From positions 36,270,001 through 36,334,000 of the forward strand of contig OX597830.1 of the NCBI GenBank assembly GCA_951406725.2: DNA of 64,000 nt. The letters are read 5' to 3'. Position numbers and translations under genes: made by a program. Source of the stretch: Octopus vulgaris (Eukaryota). The notes below the pieces were generated by a model. The model saw only the letters and a list, made by a program, of their open reading frames with translations, was not told where the DNA came from and did not search any database. The stretch's first letter is position 1, and each line of letters begins with the position of its first letter. Positions 38,824 to 58,699 of the stretch are shown here, in pieces.

Positions 38824-38920
<97 letters not shown>

Positions 38921-39256
38921 GATACAGTGTAGCGTGAGAGAGGGGAAAATATCGTGACGAGTACGATTGAAGCACTTAGTTGTAATCCACGTCGATGCTA
39001 ACTGCATCACGTTGAAATAAGTATTTAAAATTACTTGAGGTAAGTAATTCCATTGTATTTTATCCGATGGGTAAGTCATAGGTTCGCTTCTATAGATCAT
39101 GAACATTTAACCTAGTGTATATCCAATACAGTAACAATAAATGCCGAGCTTAGTATATATTATTTTTAATAATTTCTACCGTCAATTACATATTTGATTT
39201 AAATTTTCCCGGTGCATGTTTCTGCTGCTTAGACATCTACCAATTACACTTGCATC

Positions 39257-39644
39257 GTGGAGGCGCAATGGCCCAGTGATTAGGGCAGCGGACTCGCGGT
39301 CATAGGATCGCGGTTTCGATTCCCAGACCGGGCGTTGTGAGTGTTTATTGAGCGAAAACACCTAAAAGCTCCACGAGGCTCCGGCAGGGGATGGTGGTGA
39401 TCCCTGCTGTACTCTTTCACCACAACTTTCTCTCACTCTTACTTCCTGTTTCTGTTGTACCTGTATTTCAAGGGGCCGGCCTTGTCACTCTCTGTGTCAC
39501 GCTGAATATCCCCGAGAACTACGTTAAGGGTGCACGTGTCTGTGGAGTGCTCAGCCACTTACACGTTAATTTCAAGAGCAGGCTGTTCCGTTGATTCGGA
39601 TCAACCGGAACCCTCATCGTCGTAACCGACGGAGTGCTTCCACC
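39257..39644 (+). mobile_element. tRNA-derived SINE family A (tail type 1), full length with TSD
   Basis: A/B boxes; 11 bp direct repeat ACACTTGCATC at 39246-39256 and 39645-39655. Confidence 0.92.
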
Positions 39645-39904
39645 ACACTTGCATCCAGTTACTTTCAACTAGGGACTAGCCTATGCTCCTTCATTCAAGA
39701 TCCACCCACTGAAGTGGACTGATGCGAACTAAAGCAATGTAGTTTTGGCTAGTGATATATATTCGGTGGTTGACTACAGATTTTTAGTACAAAGAAGGTG
39801 GGAGGAAAATTTGGTAATCTGATATGGTTATGAAGTTTGTTATGATGTTGACCCTCTACTGATCCTACTTAGATATATCTGTATACATACACATATATAT
39901 ATAT

Positions 39905-40124
39905 TCTTATATTCTTTTATTTGTTGCAGTCATTTGACAGCGGCCATGCTGGAGCACCGGCTTTAGTCGAACAAATTGACCGCAGGACTTATTCTTTGTA
40001 AGCTTAGTACTTATTCTACCAGTTTCTTTTGCCGAACCGCTAAGTTACGGGGACGTAAACATACCAACATTATGGTTGTCAAGCGATGGTGGGGGGACAA
40101 ACAGACAAACACAGACACACAATC

Positions 40125-40125
<1 letters not shown>
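39905..40125 (-). mobile_element. SINE family B 3' half (5' half at 43391-43457)
   Basis: Family tail; split by the PLE. Confidence 0.8.
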
Positions 40126-40167
<42 letters not shown>

Positions 40168-40171
<4 letters not shown>

Positions 40172-42294
40172 TAAGACTCACCGAGGCATTTCAAGACAAA
40201 CAAATAGAGGAGGACTCAATAGCTAGAAACAAGAGCAATTACACCCCCACCAAAGGTAAGAATAAAGCCTTAGACCGCTATTGTGACTACATAACTAATT
40301 TCCCGTTTCAATTCATCAAGAAACAAAAACACAGCCCTAACTTCAACAAAAGAGAATGGAACGACCTCATCAAAATAAGAGAAGACAAAACAATAACAAT
40401 TAAGGAGGCAGATAAGGGCAACGCGATAGTAATAATGAATACAAACAATTATAAAAATTTAGTGCTATCCCTATTAAGAGATGAAACGTATTATGAAAGG
40501 GCCCAACAGTATAACCAGCAAAAAATAATGCATAACCTTAGGACATTAATCAACACATACCAAGAAGGACTCACGAACAAGGAGTATGAATACATCACTA
40601 ACTTCAAATGCAAATCGAGTTTGTTCTATGGTATCCCTAAGGTACACAAAAGCCAAACCATTAGTGAAACGTGCAAAACATCCACCGACACACTCATCAA
40701 AATCCCTTCACCAAATGATCTTAAACTAAGACCGATAATAGCAGGACCAGCATGTGAAACTCACCGCCTCAGCAATTTCTTAGACACACTTCTTAAACCT
40801 TTCCTAAAACACATCAAAAGCTACGTAAGAGACGATATAGATATGCTCAACCACCTCCCTAAAACAGTCAATGAGAAAACCCTTCTAGTATCATTCGACG
40901 TAGTTAATCTTTATTCTAACATCCCTCACAACCTAGGAATAGAAGCGATCACCTTCTGGCTGAATAACTACCCCTTTGAACTCCCAACTCGCATAAACAA
41001 AGACCTTATAATAGAAGGACTTAGATTCATTTTAGAGAACAATTATTTTATTTTTGACAATGATTTCTACAGGCAAAGATCGGGAACAGCGATGGGCACG
41101 CGTACTGCACCATCTTTTGCCAACCTAGTGATGGGATACCTCGAGAAAATACTATACCGGATGACACTCGAGAAATATGGAAACACCTTCGCCACCTATA
41201 TCCATAACAACTGGAAAAGATACCTCGATGACTGTTTCATCATCTGGGACAAAGGTATAGAGAAACTTGAGGAATTTAAAATACTATTAAATGGAATAAA
41301 TGACAATATACAATTCACGATGGACCACAACGAAAAAGAATTACCATTTTTAGACATCCTCATTAAGAAAACCGGCAACAAAATAGAGACAGATATCTAC
41401 TATAAACCGACAGACTCTAAACAGTACCTACCCTTTGATTCATGCCACCCACGACACACTAGAATGAATGTCCCTTTTTGTTTAGCTAGAAGGATTTGCA
41501 CCATAATATCAGACACAAACACCCGACACACACGTCTCCAGGAACTTAGAACCACACTCACAAATAGAAACTATCCACAGCCCCTAATAGACAGTGCAAT
41601 CCAACGGGTACTTAAATTAAGTATAGAAGACCTGAGACAAACAAAACCAAAAAAGAAAGAACAATTAAAAACCCTTCCCTACATCTCTACACACAACCCA
41701 CTCAACAATGAGGCCTTCAACACCATACTACAAAGCACAGCCCTACTAAACGGAGACCCAAAGATGAACCGGATCCTCGAAACACACACCATCATTAAAA
41801 GTAAACGGCAACCAAAATCCTTGAAAAGGATTTTAACCCAAGCTACACTGCACTCAACATCAACCACAAAACCAGCAGTTAGAAAATGTGGAAGGCCCAA
41901 CTGCGGAATCTGTGTCATCTTGAAAGAAGGATCAGAATTTATACTGGAACAAGGCCACCAGTTCACCATTAGAACAAACTTCACCTGCGCATCAGAAAAC
42001 TTAATTTACGTCATAACATGCGCAGGCTGCAATAGGCAGTATATAGGCCATACAAAAAATAGCTTACGTAACAGGATGGCGGTGCATAAATCACAAATTA
42101 GAAACCCTGATTACCGCAAAATACCGGTCAGCGGACACATAGATAGATGTGCTGGAAATGTAAATCCGAAATTTACAACTAACCCGCTCTATAAATTCAG
42201 TGACAACGCAACCTTCACACAACGCCAAAATAAAGAACTATATTTCATAAAAAAATTTAGACCAAGTTTAAACACCCTGGGCCAGGAATACTAA
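40168..42294 (+). CDS. PLE reverse transcriptase / GIY-YIG endonuclease (no start codon, frame open to the stop)
   Basis: LRPII, LVSFDVVNLYSNI, QRSGTAMG, RYLDD, LPFLD, YYKPTD..QYL...SCHP, CGRPNCGIC linker, NLIYVITC..C..QYIGHT. Confidence 0.93.
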
Positions 42295-42462
42295 AACAAA
42301 AGATAAGTCCTCCGAAAAGGAGAAGCAAAATTCCACCACGGCCGCTACTTCAAACAGACACTCACTCTGACGGAAATATGCCTAAGTAAAAAAGGAAAAA
42401 ATTCTTTCGTGCAAATCTGACCCTGATACATACGATACAGCTAAGGGTCAGACCCGATTCTG

Positions 42463-42926
42463 ATTGGTCAACAAGTTGATGACGTCTAGCTCAGCTAGAA
42501 TGGACAGGATACAAACAGGGGACAGTCATTAGTCAGAATATTGATGACGTCCTTTTCTGCTTGAATAGTCACCTAACAAGTACAGACAGGGGGCAGATCT
42601 AATGTAGCTATAAGTCGTGATTGGGCAGAATCTGCATGACGTCCCGTTCTGCTTGACTAACGAAGCGACTGGTCAAAACAGGAAACAAACAAGAGGCAGT
42701 TATAATGCAGCGATTGGTCAAAATAATGATGACGTCCCGTTCTACTTGACTAACGAAGCGACTGGTCAAAACAGGAAACAAACAAGAGGCAGTTATAATG
42801 CAGCGATTGGTCAAAATAATGATGACGTCCCGTTCTACTTGACTAAAGCCACCTAACGAAACGATTGGTCAAAGCGTTGATGACGTCACGCTACGCTGGA
42901 TTGACCACCTAACAGGCATTATAAAA
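42463..42926 (+). promoter_or_regulatory. Array of six ATTGG-N12-TGACGTC modules plus TATA box, including a 93 bp tandem repeat
   Basis: TGACGTC at 42480, 42545, 42637, 42730, 42823 and 42881, each 12 nt after ATTGG (one ATTAG); TATAAAA at 42920. Confidence 0.7.
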
Positions 42927-43232
42927 CCGAGCACTTCACAAAAACTCATTAGAACCACCCAGCGAACATCCACCATGGGTCATCACATTTGCTTAAGGTA
43001 AAAATGAATTCCTCAATCTTCTGTATTGACCGCTTTCCACCACTTTGATCTGTTTTTTGTATTGAATACGTATCGCCACCGTGGGCCACTGCATCGAACA
43101 CTTTGAACATATACTTCAAACTATATATCAACTATACATGAACTATATATCAACTATACATGAACTCTAAGATGTCTGACTCCGTTGTGTATTATAAATG
43201 AATTTCTTGTGTTTGACGGCATGAGCTGTCTT

Positions 43233-43302
43233 TTTTTATATATAACTTTTTTGATAAAGTTCATTTCAGGAACTGAAACATGTTATAATGTATATATAAA
43301 AA
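43233..43302 (+). ncRNA. Minimal hammerhead-like motif, U3:A8 variant, at the PLE 3' end
   Basis: UUGAUAA agttc atttcag gaact GAAAC AU GUU; distal stem I tttttatatata/tatatataaaaa, weak next to the core. Confidence 0.6.
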
Positions 43303-43346
43303 TTAAAAATTGTATAATACAGCAGCATTTTCGAACTTCATTTTTT

Positions 43347-43396
<50 letters not shown>

Positions 43397-43577
43397 GAAG
43401 ACACTTGCCCAAGATGCTACGCAGTGGCACTGAACCTGGAACCATTTGTTTGGTAAGCAAGCGACTTACGACACAATCAAGCTGAATTAGTTACGTAAAT
43501 TGAGGCACCAAGTCCGTCCGGTATTATTCGCACACCACAAAGTAAGATGAATAAAAAGCAAATAAGTGACTAGGATG

Positions 43578-43683
43578 TCAAGGTATCAGTGCATTACGGT
43601 CGTTTCAGACGGCAGCATCTACTGCTTGCATTGTTCGGCTACATGGAGCCACCTGAAACGGCCATAATGCACTAATACCTTGA
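43578..43683. repeat. Imperfect 36 bp inverted repeat (MITE-like hairpin)
   Basis: tcaaggtatcagtgcattacggtcgtttcagacggc / gccacctgaaacggccataatgcactaataccttga. Confidence 0.7.
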
Positions 43684-43716
43684 TGTCTTTGTTATTTGTT
43701 TTATATATATATATAC

Positions 43717-44092
43717 GCGCAGGCATGACTGTGTGGTAAGAAGTTTGCTTACCAACCACCTGATTCGCGGTTCAGGCCCACTGTATGGTACCTTGGGCAA
43801 GTACCTTCTACTATAGCCTCAACCCGACCAAGACCTTGGGTGTTGATTTGGTAGACGGAAACTGAACTATGTGTGTGTGATTTGTGTCTGTGTGTATCCC
43901 CTCACCATCGATTGACAACCGGTGATGACGTGTTTACGCCCTTGTTACTTAACGGTTCAGCAAAAGAGACCGATAAGACAAGATACGGGCTTTTAAAACA
44001 TATAAGTAATGGGGTCGATACATTCGAGTAAAAATTCTTCAAGGCGATGCCCCAGCATGGCCGCAGACAAATTACTGAAACAAGTAAAAGAA
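43717..44092 (+). mobile_element. SINE family B
   Basis: Head, CORE-like block and tail present. Confidence 0.82.
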
Positions 44093-44593
44093 TTTTTAAA
44101 ATGGCGTTCTTCCGCTCAACTTCCATCAACCGATTTCACTCATAAAGCGCTGCTTACCTGCAGGTTATAATGCACAAGGCATTTACATAAGATGCTGGGC
44201 TGAAGAACCGACCCCGAAGAAGCATGGTAGAGATGTGAACTCTCAAACTGCATAACCATGCCTTTATCTATCTCACAGATATTTCTTCCGGACTTCTCTT
44301 TTCTTCTTTTCCAATTCGAACTTTCCATTTCAATGGAAATTTTCACAGCGCCATCTAGTGAGTGTTGGGAGAGCGATGGATGAAGCCATTTTGGTGCATA
44401 TTGGTGTGGGGTTTCCTTTGTGTTGGGGTCATTCAGGAGAAACTGAGAAATGGTGGAAAACCAGACGTTCTTTAAGTAATTTAATCAAAGTGAAACTGAG
44501 ACTAAAGAGTACGTGCTGCAATCAATGAACCGTATTTGGACAAATAATTAATGATGGCTTCTTAAAAACATTGGTGATAGGGGTGATTAACAA

Positions 44594-53307: not shown

Positions 53308-53861
53308 GAGTGAGAGAGCAGTTCATGCCATCAAAGTGACACTGGGGTAAAATATACGAAGCCCAATATACCCATCATGACTACCCGTCTGATAAAGGTA
53401 CACCAGGCACATGCATCACAACCATATGTGCGCGACATGGTGATCTCATATCAAGATAAACAGCACATGACCTTGCAGGTGGGGCCCAGTTAGAATTTTC
53501 TTCAGGTTGAGTAGCCCATCCCGCTCAAACGGTCCCTGAATAAGGGTTGTTTAAGGATGTTGAAAGAACCACCCATGTTTCCAGAGGTGAACTATTCAAA
53601 CCCCAAAGAATCCCTCGCAACACATGGCTATGATGCTCCCCCACTACTTCTGCTCGTGATCAGAGATGCACATATCGTCAGCCACTAAGGGACATGCTCA
53701 ACTGGTTAAGGTCAAACAACTGACAAGCAAATCTGTGGTATTGAGCAGAATATTTGCTGTAGCCCATCTTTTATACCAAGACAAAACAATGTACATGATA
53801 ACACTTCCAATCAGTTAAGATCAGAAGCCATGAGAGCCACTGCCTGGTACTGCATCAGGGC

Positions 53862-53862
<1 letters not shown>
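53308..53862. mobile_element. 555 bp non-coding element between (TAT)n tracts
   Basis: Sharp boundaries; its first 15 nt recur exactly at 4308-4322, also within (TAT)n. Confidence 0.6.
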
Positions 53863-53946
<84 letters not shown>

Positions 53947-55167
53947 GTCTTTGCACAGCTTCTAACGCTGGACATGTGCTACGGTGCCAACTGTTCACTA
54001 TCAGTGAACTACGGTAACATCCTTTATTTTTCGAGCACCATCCGGAGTATTCAAGCGGTTCCAAGCAGTGCTGTTTTCTGCAAGTGCTCCACCCTTATTG
54101 CAGCCCCTATTTGTTCCATGTACTTCTCAAGATTTTTACTCACTGTTCCCAGGGCTCCGACAATTATTGGTACTACTACCACCTTTTTCAGCGACCACAA
54201 CTGCTTAACCTCCCAAGCTAACCTGTCATATCTATCGACTTTTCTTTCTTCCTTATCGCATACCTTGTTGTCAGCTGGAAATGCTATATCTATGATCCAG
54301 CATCGTTTGCTTTCTTTCTCAATTAACACTATGTCTGGTTTCCTATTCTCTATCTCATGGTCGCACTGAATCATAAAATCCATAGGATCTTTGCATTATC
54401 ATTTTCGATGATGCCTTCGGGTTTATGTTCGTACCACTTTTTGCTCTGTCAAGTCCATACTTGTTGCAAAGTGTCCAATGGACAATCCTTGCTATATTGT
54501 CATGACGTCTCTTATATTCTTTCTGGGCTAGTGGCGTACATTGACTGGTAATATGCCATACGGTTTCACCATTTTGTCCACAAATTCTGCACTTATCACT
54601 TTCTGATGTGTTGTCTATTCTGTATTTGATGTAATTGGTTCTTAATGCTTGCTCTTGGGCAGCACAGATTAGAGCCTCCGTTTCCGGTTTTAAATCACTT
54701 TTAGTCATCCATAGCCATCTTTTTTCTCTGTCTGTCTTATCTTCAACATCCCTATGAAATTGTCCATGCATTCTTTTCTTTATCCACCTATTTTCAGTTT
54801 CATTCATTCTCAAGTGCTTGTACAGTGCTTTATCTTTGCAATCTTCCATCCTACACAAGCCTGACCTTCTTACTTCCAATAATAGTGATTTTTTACATAC
54901 CATGCTATGTTGTTTTCTTCTGCTCTAATGCTGTGTTCGCATCCAATCAGTCCTCTTCCCCTTCTTTTTCTTGGTACATACAGTCTGTCTGTGTCACTTT
55001 TTGGGTGGAGTATCTATATCTAGTCAGCAACTTCATTGTCTTCCTGTCTAAGCTGTTTAGTTCGTCTATTGTTCATGCGATTACCCCTGCTCCATATCTA
55101 AGGAGTGAAACCACCCAGGTGTTGATAGCTTCAATCTTATTCCGTCCGTTTAATTTCGACATAAGGA
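53947..55167 (-). mobile_element. R4/Dong-like RLE retrotransposon, 3' part (frameshifted), runs into the gap
   Basis: TEALICAAQEQAL, CRICGQNGETVWHITSQC, RRHD, RKPDIVLIEK...IIDIAFP, LQKTALLGTA; 3' end on (TAA)n. Confidence 0.9.
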
Positions 55168-55267
55168 NNNNNNNNNNNNNNNNNNNNNNNNNNNNNNNNN
55201 NNNNNNNNNNNNNNNNNNNNNNNNNNNNNNNNNNNNNNNNNNNNNNNNNNNNNNNNNNNNNNNNNNN
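55168..55267. other. Assembly gap (100 N)
   Basis: Run of N. Confidence 1.
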
Positions 55268-58200
55268 TGATTGATTGATTCTAGTTTCAGCTTATGAGCT
55301 GTGGCCATGTGCTGGGGCACCGCCATTTGGTGTTGCTACTTGGTTTCACTTCATGGAGGCTTTCTAGCAACTGCTATTTGGTGCATGAGAGAGTTTGATG
55401 CAGCTGCCCTCATCTGCCCCTCCTGCCGTGAAGTTGGTTCATCTGGGACACCTGACAGGAAGAGATCCAGCTTCATTTTAAAGACATCTGTATCCACCCC
55501 ATGCAGGTCTCTCAGGTTCTTCGGGAGGATATTGAAGAGTTGTGGGCCTCGGAAGCCCAGGCTATCACAGAATCTTGTCCTACATCTTGATGGCAGGTTT
55601 GGAGTCCTAGGCACCACGCAGTGGCGCCCAGTTCTGGCATTTGCGTAACTCTCGATGGCAAAGTTCAGGACACTTCCCTCCAGGATCTTCCAGATGTATA
55701 TTATGGCATATCTTTCCCGCCTACGCTCCAGGGAATATAATTTTAATCTCTTGAGTCTTTCCCAGTAGCTTACATTCTGCATAGAGGCTATCTTCTTTGT
55801 GTAGCTTCGTTGGATCACCTCAAGTTCTGTGATCAACTTGACACTGGATGGTGACCATAGCTGAGAGCAATAGTCAAAGTGGCTTAGGACAAGTGTCTTC
55901 CAGAGGACCATCATGGTTTCTTGTTCTCTTGTTCTAAAGGTTCTAAGAATCCATCCAGCCAGCCGTCTACATTTCATTGTCAGTTTAGCAACATGTACAT
56001 GAAAGGTCGCGTCATCACTCATGTGAATACTAAGGTCACATGCACTGATTGTGCCTCTGGGATTGCAATCCCTCCGGGTCCAGTGTATTCATTGGTTATT
56101 GCATTCAGTTTTGCATGCTGATAGTATAAAGCTTGAAACTTTCCAGCATTGAACTGCATGCTATTCTTTTCAGCCCACTTGTATATTTCGTCCAGCTCAC
56201 ATTGCAGGTGTTTAGTGTCCTCAGGGTTCTGTATTGCCTGTGAGACTTTTGTATCATCTGCATAACTTGTGATCGTGGCTCTCTGCGTGGCTGAGGGCAT
56301 GTCTGAGAGGGCCATTATGAACAGTAGTGGTCCCAGAACAGTGCCCTGCGGAACACCGCTCACTATTTGTGTGTTAATGGAGGTGGCCCCATTGGCTACT
56401 ACCACCTGACTTCTATCCTTCAGAAAGTCATGAAGCCATTCTCCCAGTTTTCCAACTATGTTGAGATCACGCAGTTTGTGACATATCATTCCATGATCGA
56501 CTTTATCAAAGGCCTTTGCAAAGTCGAGATATATCACTTCCACATTTGAGTGGTTGAGCAGCCGTTTCAGCACCCAGTCATAGTGTTGTAGGAGCTGAGT
56601 TAAACAGCTTCTCCCTGGTCGGAAACCATGTTGGGTGTCGGGCAGCAGGTCATTCTCTTCAAGGAAGGTGATCAGCTTCCTTCTGACCTATTCGTTCCAT
56701 GACCTTGCTGATGTGTGAGGTCAGAGAGATAGGTCTATAGTTCTTGGCTTCCGCTCTGCTACCTCCTTTATGAATGGGGCATATTTTACCTTCCTTCAGT
56801 TTTCCTGGAAGTTTGCCAGCTGCAAGGAAGCTCTGAAAGAGGAACTGCAGTGGTCTTGCTAGGACTCTCTTACATGCTTTTAGGAAGATTGCCGGGAATC
56901 CATCGGGGCCAGTAGCTGAGTCTGTTTTCATTTCATCTATAGCCTTGGTTACATCGTCTTCCTTTATATCGATGTAATCTATCGTCGCCGCCTCTGATTT
57001 TATATCTGCAGTGGTAAAAAAGTCAGTTGGATTGGTGATTTGGAGATGCCCAAGGGGTGGAGTGAAAACACTCTTGAATTGCTCATTCAGTATTTCACTT
57101 ACCCTCATTGGTTTTCCTGTAAGTGTGCCATCCTTTTCAAGGAGTGGCCCTATTCTACAGTGCACTGTAGCTGTTTCTTTGGCATACCTGTAGAAAGCTC
57201 TGGGGTTAGATTTTATGTTTTCTATAGCCCAGGCTTCTTTGTCTGCTCTTTCTTTTTCATGGGAGAGTTGCAGACATTTTTCGATTTCCAACAGTTTTAT
57301 TTTTAGGCGGGACTTTTCACTGCTTTCAATCTGTTTGTTTAGGCGATTTGAAAATTTCGTACGCCGTCTCATTAAAATTTTCCTCTCTCTGGGGATTTTG
57401 TTCTTGTGTACAGTGGCCTTTCTCTCTGGGACACATTTGTAGCATATGGCTTGCATTACAGACATGAATTGTTGAAGTTTCACATCGATGTCTGGCGAGG
57501 AGAGACATTCAGGCCAGTTTTGTTTGAGGATCTCTTTCTCAATTTGTTTCCAGTTTGCCTTATGGTAGTTCAAGCTGGAAAGATTTTGAGGGTTTCTTGT
57601 AGGCTGCATGTCCATGCTCTCTTTTGGCCCGTACATGGTCAGCTCTATCATGTTGTGATTCGAGAGTAGTGTCGGTGTCACTTTCACATTATGGATGAGA
57701 TCCATGTCATTTGTGAAGCAGAGATCCAGTGTGTTACCTGTCCTGGTTGGTTGGAGTATTACCTGCTCCATGTACAGGGTGTTGATGAGGTTCAGGAGGG
57801 ACCTCGCCTGTCCTCGTTCACATCTTGTCATTCCTGGGAGAGAAAGGCCCTCGGGCCATCTGACATTGGGCAGATTGAAGTCTCCCATAAGAAGCACACC
57901 TATGTGTTGTTCTAATGTGGTTAGAATTTCTTCTATTTTTATAAGGCAGTCTTCGAACTTGCCCACATGGCTTGGGGCATCTGGAGGGCGATATGTAGCA
58001 CACACAACTACATCAAGTTGCCTAATATGTACAATTAGTGTGTCACACACCGAGTTTGAGTATGACAAGAGGACCTGGGGTGTGAGGTCCTCACGGATGT
58101 ACATAGCAACACCTCCATGACTCCTTTCTTTCCTGTCGGTCCGTAGTACAGCATACTGTGGTATGTGTAACTCCGCATCTGCTATGTCCGGTTTCAGGTG

Positions 58201-58699
58201 CGTTTCTGTAAGTGCTATGCATAAGGCTTGATTGCATGCAACAAAGTCTCTCAGGAACGGGATCTTTGTCCTGTTACTGAGTGTTTGCAGTCCTCTGATG
58301 TTCAGTAGGAGTATCGAGGTGAGGTGTACGTTGTTGCCGGCGGTGTCCATCCTGTGTCTGTTTGCTGTGGTGGTCTGGTATATAGTGGGTAGTCCCACCT
58401 GCGGGCTTGGGTTTGATGAAGCCAGGTCAGCTGCTGTACAATCTTTTGTGCCATGCACAAAAAAGATTGTTGCTCAGCAGCTGCTCTTTCGACAACATCA
58501 TGTTGGCTGTTTGTGGCGCGCACAACATCTGCATACCTCCGCTTTGGGGCAGGTGGTGCGTAGTCCATCCCTTTTCTTTGTGTTGATGGTTTGTCCATCT
58601 GCCTCGTGTCTCTGTGGCAGGGTCCCCGATGTGCAAAGCGGCAGCCTGCACCTTCCTTTCCGTGCCAGCAGGAACCTCTCAGGTAGAACATACACACCC

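Follow-up and report, generated by a model that had tools for sequence, protein, structure and literature searches.

A CCAAT/CRE-type array with a TATA box in the tail of an octopus Penelope-like element: a probable external promoter captured in reverse

The window, i.e. the whole 64-kb stretch of Octopus vulgaris DNA analysed here, contains a 5'-truncated Penelope-like element (PLE) between two (TA)n runs (40168–43350), with its tail present once. The truncated ORF2 (40168–42294, + strand, stop codon at 42292–42294) encodes a reverse transcriptase (RT), a CX4CxxC linker and, at its C terminus, a GIY-YIG endonuclease according to its translation and to Pfam, where RVT_1 (E 1.2e-6) fell just under the cut-off and GIY-YIG lay over it; no integrase match was found in the Pfam search of the element. 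The RT-endonuclease linker reads CGRPNCGIC, which fits CX2-5CxxC, and the CCHH motif of the endonuclease consists of LIYVITCAGCNRQYIG, its two cysteines lying between GIY and YIG, and of two histidines after it. These residues and the (TA)n flanks indicate that the element is an EN+ PLE with features matching the Neptune/Nematis type. The likeness is one of features, and according to the cited text it covers the RT, the CX2-5CxxC linker and the C-terminal GIY-YIG domain with CCHH, as well as partial tandems, inverted 5' copies, a 30–40-nt tail, (TA)n targets and a pLTR hammerhead (PMC8557442). The tail extension corresponding to the 30–40-nt tail of EN+ PLEs is seen in several copies. Assignment to Naiad/Chlamys was rejected because the endonuclease is C-terminal, and assignment to Hydra because CCHH is present. 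Elsewhere in the window lie a LINE in fragments (53710–58473, − strand), which matches AP endonuclease, RT and zf-RVT, and a repeat with a tRNA-like head that looks SINE-like by eye (39260–39640).

The 3' tail (42295–43350, + strand) was delimited by comparison of copies, which share a 3' end at ~43350 followed by (TA)n. As follows from subfamily comparison, it begins with a native part common to module-less sister subfamilies (42295–42348, +), followed by an eroded remnant of a captured block (42352–42462, − strand), namely donor sequence that lies downstream of the donor modules and is reversed here. A 7-bp hairpin at 42418–42450, just upstream of module 1 (z −3.2 versus shuffles), is made of duplicated donor sequence. 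The array and the TATA box come next, and then a putative transcription start zone (42947–42966, +) deduced from copy 5' ends, with TCATT/TCACT at 42946–42950. A short upstream ORF of 8 codons with strong ATG context (42975–43001, +) is missing in the sister subfamily, and ~20 nt present in other copies just after this ORF are missing from the window copy (43013). The 3' part of the tail harbors a minimal hammerhead motif (43251–43284, +), recognized by motif comparison, with a predicted cut after 43284; its core is the U3-A8 variant described in the cited part of PMC4209133. Stem II comprises 5 bp, AGTTC/GAACT in the window and GGTTC/GAACC in sister subfamilies, i.e. a two-sided change. Free folding of the region recovers stems I and II weakly (z −1.8), and an Rfam scan of 38900–44500 gave 7 weak matches, none of them credible, and did not detect the hammerhead.

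The array is formed by six TGACGT cores starting at 42480, 42545, 42637, 42730, 42823 and 42881. Five of them have ATTGG exactly 12 nt upstream (42463, 42620, 42713, 42806 and 42864), and ATTAG (42528) takes its place 12 nt upstream of the core at 42545. The modules, all defined by sequence pattern on the + strand, are ATTGG-N12-TGACGTCT (module 1, 42463–42487), ATTAG-N12-TGACGTCC (module 2, 42528–42552, without intact CCAAT box), ATTGG-N12-TGACGTCC (module 3, 42620–42644, the sole one with a clearly diverged spacer), the identical modules 4 (42713–42737) and 5 (42806–42830), the latter belonging to an extra 93-nt unit missing from most intact-ORF copies, and ATTGG-N12-TGACGTCA (module 6, 42864–42888). 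The full CRE palindrome TGACGTCA occurs in the last core only (1/6), the five other cores being near-CREs that contain TGACG. Module 6 lies 39 nt upstream of TATAAAA (42920–42926, +), which according to subfamily comparison was derived from GCTACAACCCC in the lineage of the window family. The strict ATTGG-N12 pattern gives 5 matches in the 64-kb window and none in 100 shuffles. The preliminary description of this DNA had proposed six CCAAT/CRE modules with invariant 12-nt spacing upstream of a TATA box. The six TGACGTC-type cores, their spacing and the TATA box are borne out by the window sequence, as is the perfect palindrome in the TATA-proximal module; module 2, however, has no CCAAT box and only one core is a full CRE. 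Since module 2 carries ATTAG, the array is counted here as five plus one.

The six modules are paralogues, i.e. duplicates of one unit. A 93-nt tandem repeat with 99% identity spans 42636–42846 of the array, and five of the six spacers are identical to one ancestral unit at 9–10 of 12 positions (module 3 at 6/12). The modules being copies of one unit, their fixed 12-nt spacing within the array is largely a matter of common descent. The earlier argument that the motifs were kept while the spacers diverged is accordingly weak inside the array, where only module 3 has really diverged. Five modules were found in 31 of 42 family rows, six in 7 and four in 4; the rows were picked by endonuclease match, some copies being counted twice, and the four-module rows result from one mutated module. 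A count of seven modules in intact copies, suggested by the splitting of BLAST matches, was rejected, as direct counting gave five.

Full-length relatives extend further 5' than the window copy. Part of the tail is repeated upstream of ORF1 in 9 of 40 long loci, with an inverted piece in 4 of the 40, and a tenth full-length copy with a 5' pLTR was found beyond those 40 loci. As full-length relatives repeat the tail at their 5' end, the tail in the window is pLTR sequence; the proposed location of the array in a PLE pLTR thus holds by virtue of the other copies, the window copy itself carrying the 3' tail only. Judging from its sequences, the window family is young: among the family matches listed, 40 scored at 94–100% identity, the endonuclease matches listed include 150 at 97–99%, many within 781-aa open frames, and the 18-mer at 42970 has 455 exact copies in the genome. 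The full-length copies L033 and L038 have two overlapping frames, a lysine/glutamate-rich ORF1 of ~480 codons and a 781-codon RT-endonuclease frame, which lies in the −1 frame and overlaps ORF1 by ~80 nt. Canonical EN+ PLEs are described with a single ORF, and a figure legend of PMC8557442 allows for an optional, frameshifted ORF1.

The origin of the array was followed in a motif-independent sample of 50 loci picked by GIY-YIG match, 47 of which aligned to the endonuclease. Modules are present in 15 of the 47, all at 12 nt; the loci without modules are 5 close relatives (76–93% endonuclease identity) and 27 distant loci, some with short readable tails. The close loci can be arranged in stages. 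Stage 0 (L116, L120, L121, L129, L135) has a low-complexity tail with neither module nor TATA. Stage 1 (L108, L118, L124, L090) has the stage-0 tail with an insert of ~310 nt. L108 corresponds to the module-less L121 plus this insert, which, across 320 columns, is 81% identical to the L107 tail read on its reverse strand and shows a 5-nt ACAGT microhomology at one junction. The endonuclease of the donor L107 family is only 43% identical, and the donor-family modules read TGACGTCA-N12-CCAAT and point to TTTATAAA, the donor motif that older subfamilies retain; the window family has lost it, the reversed donor TATA being gone there. In stage 2 (L092, L123) an imperfect donor unit, ATTCG-N12-TGACGTT, is duplicated 2–4 times. 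In stage 3 (9 loci), as in the window family, there are 3–6 units, which now read ATTGG-N12-TGACGTC, except that two first units still have ATTCG.

The ready-made ATTGG unit of the donor is gone from stage 3 and the window family. All 32 array units examined are nearest to the donor ATTCG unit (mean 9.8/12 vs 3.1 and 4.3), and hence ATTGG was gained within the amplified unit. The changes are directional, namely ATTCG to ATTGG, TGACGTT to TGACGTC and a new TATA at fixed distance. The latter arose from the native GCTACAACCCC through the series gctacaacccc, gatataacccc, gatataaaccc, gatataaaaccc and cattataaaacc, and came to lie 39 nt downstream of the final CRE. For phylogeny, the final 900 nt of ORF2 were compared in 29 rows, a set without the donor rows, three distant and two short rows; the tree was rooted at its midpoint, distant families serving as outgroup. 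In it the 17 rows that bear the block form a single clade (99/96) nested in the module-less stage-0 relatives, and the 13 ATTGG-array rows likewise form a clade (100/99). Support for which of stages 1 and 2 came first is weak (89/80, 88/79). Taken together, the related copies show that a block was captured in reverse from a distant PLE family, then duplicated and given a new TATA.

With the window family excluded, the module pattern has 460 matches in the genome at N12 (138 for the reversed control), 159 at N11 (control 220) and 111 at N13 (control 231). Inspection of 30 N12 matches assigned 12 to LINE RT codons and 15 to tails of other PLE families, with 3 standing alone. As 12 of the 30 are a coincidence in LINE RT, the pattern alone is no proof, and the count was not used for function. 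The LINE family concerned (L081, L097 and 10 further loci) matches ATTGG-N12-TGACGTC by chance through the antisense of the RT codons for YADDVTLIVSN.

Conservation was read from units diverged to below 80% identity and anchored on TGACGT alone, a set in which the donor loci had first been found via the motif. In 13 of these 20 units ATTGG stands at 12 nt, and no unit has it at a different offset between 6 and 20. In pairwise comparison the box is 0.84 identical, the spacer 0.47 and the flanks 0.32 and 0.36, and in donor copies taken from an unrelated anchor all 15 ACGTCA-CCAAT pairs are 12 nt apart. The box is thus kept across families whose spacers and flanks diverge, so that the expectation of motifs and 12-nt spacing preferentially conserved among related PLEs is supported. 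Compared with the extended NF-Y flank consensus, the 13 diverged units with the box have C/G beside it in 12 cases and two purines before CCAAT in 11. The ER stress element, CCAAT-N9-CCACG, was rejected as the identity of the module: here the partner site lies on the opposite side of CCAAT, 12 nt away. The geometry, with a partner site 12 nt 5' of CCAAT, is that of an NF-Y and bZIP composite. In human ChIP data, ERV repeats included, bZIP and bHLH sites are reported 10–12 bp 5' of CCAAT (PMC7793273), and 12 nt is a known NF-Y partner spacing there (PMC7793273, PMC4889920, in the parts cited); tandem NF-Y and partner modules of ERVs with this arrangement are similar to the present array.

Inserted copies (n=82) behave differently. 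Their private changes amount to 9.1 per 1000 cells at CRE CpGs, 5.2 at other CpGs and 3.0 elsewhere. The faster decay of CRE CpGs gives no sign that the host keeps the CREs. The ATTGG boxes show 0.9 per 1000 cells vs 3.0, a value from 2 changes and too small a number to use. As far as these sequences tell, the constraint is acting on the active lineage and not visibly on inserted copies.

A second line of evidence comes from the 5' ends of family copies. How far a copy reaches upstream was mapped for 94 copies out of the first 100 listed for the 18-mer at 42970 (455 in total), 6 being omitted as already sampled under other ids. Twenty-seven of the 94 end at 42947–42966 and none at 42911–42946; further upstream 41 ends are spread across 1469 nt, and 26 copies run beyond. 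The end density is 14.1 vs 0.68 per kb at risk (1.3 ends expected, Poisson P ~3e-26). Plain (TA)n-flanked insertions account for 18 of the 27 pile-up copies, and promoterless copies of ~400 nt (42947–43350) make up more than a quarter of the sample (~27/94). The upstream edge of the pile-up lies 27 nt after the TATA box and the deduced transcription start 27–30 nt after it, which agrees with the start predicted by the preliminary description 25–30 nt after 42920.

In a sister subfamily with different downstream sequence (anchor 47 nt after TATA; 30 of 55 copies sampled, two ends read by eye) 5 of 30 ends lie 10–18 nt before the anchor and none at 19–64 nt. TATA-less subfamilies showed no pile-up among 30 of 147 copies, the ends being evenly spread. 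The donor family (30 of 43 copies) showed no clear pile-up, 7 ends lying within 82 nt of the anchor, none at 83–121 and 4 at 122–143, with the predicted start at ~88. We infer that the pile-up is a fossil transcription start, i.e. the 5' end, or cap site, of the RNA template. For another PLE, reverse transcription was shown to be primed within the RNA, close to the junction of pLTR and ORF, in the cited part of PMC11167929. A splice joint from the GT at 42999 to ORF1 was not found when four sequencing runs of presumed RNA were compared with a full-length 5' end; one contig bridges pLTR and ORF1 unspliced and may be DNA.

Most probably (we put the chance at roughly 0.75), the array is a Pol II promoter belonging to the element itself, TATA-containing and lying outside the transcript, which works when the tail sits 5' as pLTR and which arose from a block captured in reverse, duplicated and supplied with a new TATA. 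As judged from the motifs, each CCAAT box would be a site for NF-Y, and TGACGTC, 12 nt away, a site for a bZIP dimer of CREB/ATF type, while the TATA at 42920 would set the start at ~42947–42953. A partial tail copy landing upstream of ORF1 as 5' pLTR would drive the ORF1-ORF2 transcript, much as the U3 of an LTR or the 3' promoter of HeT-A does. If reverse transcription is primed at the end of the pLTR and runs to the RNA 5' end, the ~400-nt promoterless copies would result, and selection may have caused the stepwise changes of array and TATA. In the truncated copy of the window the promoter faces outwards, away from the element, with no ORF for it to transcribe.

An alternative raised by the preliminary description is that the array is a cAMP- or activity-responsive enhancer that makes neighbouring host DNA responsive as well. 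This is compatible with a promoter of the element itself, and we regard it as unlikely. The full CRE 39 nt upstream of TATA is suggestive, five near-CREs containing TGACG accompany it, and at least 455 copies are present in the genome. Against it, TGACGTC also fits ATF2/Jun, XBP1 or CREB3-type factors, the CRE CpGs of inserted copies change at 9.1 per 1000 cells vs the 3.0 background, and selection on a transposon presumably acts on germline expression. For Penelope it was proposed that a pLTR can drive host sequence downstream of it (PMC2377424); in liver, however, cAMP induction is only weakly predicted by CREB binding and TATA, according to the cited text of PMC3671974.

It is very improbable that the pile-up of 5' ends marks an RNA processing or polymerase-stop site (splice acceptor or cleavage), with transcription starting elsewhere. 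A YAG does occur at 42950–42952 and four copies begin at 42953, the pile-up ends are spread across 20 nt, and the 5' pLTRs of 7 of the 10 full-length copies start upstream of the pile-up. However, no pyrimidine tract precedes the YAG, no copy has a joined upstream exon, and the sharp upstream edge stands 27 nt after TATA in two subfamilies of differing local sequence. A structural stall is unlikely given the weak RNA folding near the pile-up, −0.9 to −5.4 kcal/mol per 60 nt (mean −6.8). Least credible is a neutral tandem expansion of an inherited unit with motif and spacing kept by descent alone, since the paralogy of the six modules with their 99% identical 93-nt duplication, the variation of their number (3–6), the loss of the module 2 box in nearly all copies and the spread of module-less subfamilies are opposed by the directional gains (ATTCG to ATTGG, TGACGTT to TGACGTC, TATA at fixed distance), by cross-family conservation of the box far above spacer and flanks and by a pile-up at TATA+27 in TATA-bearing subfamilies only.

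Some observations limit the reading of the array as the element's own promoter. The block is absent from all five close subfamilies (76–93%), which branch first, and from the 27 distant loci, all of which spread, and thus the captured block is not needed for PLE activity. Another concerns the 5' pLTRs of the 10 full-length copies (L033, L038, L161, L162, L164, L167, L170, L174, L178, L273), which start at 42385, 42784, 42861, 42866, 42871, 42878, 42920, 43042, 43277 and 43278. All six modules are contained in one of them, two modules in one, one module in one, CRE and TATA in three, TATA only in one and none of these in three. The predominance of 0–2 modules fits the module adjoining TATA being the best one. 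Seven of the ten extend upstream of the inferred start, 5 of these by no more than 90 nt. None has its 5' end at that start, as a simple model of linear RNA would predict, and single copying of a linear RNA therefore cannot account for these pLTRs. Two of the ten begin within 7 nt of the predicted hammerhead cut.

In retroviruses the enhancer repeats and TATA of U3 stand upstream of the start within the terminal repeat. The likeness to a retroviral U3 noted earlier holds for this geometry, with repeats and TATA upstream of the start in a terminal repeat. In contrast to a retroviral LTR, the window element has a GIY-YIG endonuclease, a hammerhead and microsatellite targets, and complete identical LTRs were not encountered, the 5' repeat of the PLE starting anywhere from 42385 to 43278.

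To our knowledge, the internal TATA-less promoter of Penelope is the sole PLE promoter that has been dissected. As in Penelope of Drosophila virilis, promoter and start lie in the pLTR, and there the full copy downstream relies on the tail of a partial copy lying upstream (PMC2377424). The Penelope promoter is internal and TATA-less (PMC2377424), whereas in the window family the elements are upstream of the inferred start and include TATA. They are thus absent from the RNA 5' end, unlike in Penelope, and each active new copy must regain sequence that its RNA 5' end lacks. This need bears on the question of pLTR regeneration, for which the Penelope authors saw no obvious mechanism, as stated in the cited part of PMC2377424. 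The Pen2a pLTR of Adineta vaga likewise has a putative TATA and Inr, and a bidirectional promoter was suggested; it belongs to the Penelope/Poseidon clade and, in the cited part of that report, is described by motif only, with no upstream modules or start-site evidence (PMC3846280). For Neptune/Nematis-type EN+ PLEs promoter anatomy or exchange is not described in the cited text (PMC8557442).

Mouse LINE-1 offers a parallel in which one ladder-like ORF lineage acquired new promoters from another family, probably by template switching (PMC3600994). There an internal 5' UTR was swapped in the same orientation (PMC3600994), whereas in the window PLE the block entered the 3' tail reversed and was apparently rebuilt to fire the other way. 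What is new here is a PLE with a probable external CCAAT/CRE-TATA promoter and its inverted capture, promoter replacement itself being well known in mouse L1 according to the cited text (PMC3600994). Neither such a promoter nor inverted promoter capture was found for any PLE in the literature searched, and repeat-database entries may annotate the family; the cited part of an octopus repeat annotation counts active Penelope families without promoter detail (PMC13282606).

A wider proposal can be put forward tentatively. PLEs might trade promoters as pLTR cassettes, and the pLTR of this lineage might be a working U3-R equivalent, i.e. an external NF-Y/CREB-TATA promoter captured reversed, rebuilt stepwise by selection and restored whenever a full-length copy inserts, either because synthesis jumps between the redundant ends of the RNA or because the template is circular or multimeric. 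If so, the fossil start makes pLTR regeneration directly testable, and hundreds of outward-facing tails could supply nearby host DNA with signal-responsive starts. The family would provide a second PLE promoter design, whose start site can be read off the genomic copies. It would also offer something rare, a complete fossil series in which a promoter is captured, inverted and amplified and then tuned one base at a time. Its natural intermediates would be ready-made material on how a TATA box and a fixed NF-Y/bZIP spacing arise.

Two minor observations concern other loci. In L174 a ~620-nt unrelated, partly GC-rich insert (L174:3140–3770) separates the 5' pLTR tail and ORF1. A distant PLE family (L141, L114 and related loci; 35–41% endonuclease identity) has several CCAAT boxes in its tail and no CRE, and this CCAAT-only tail possibly represents a third promoter type.
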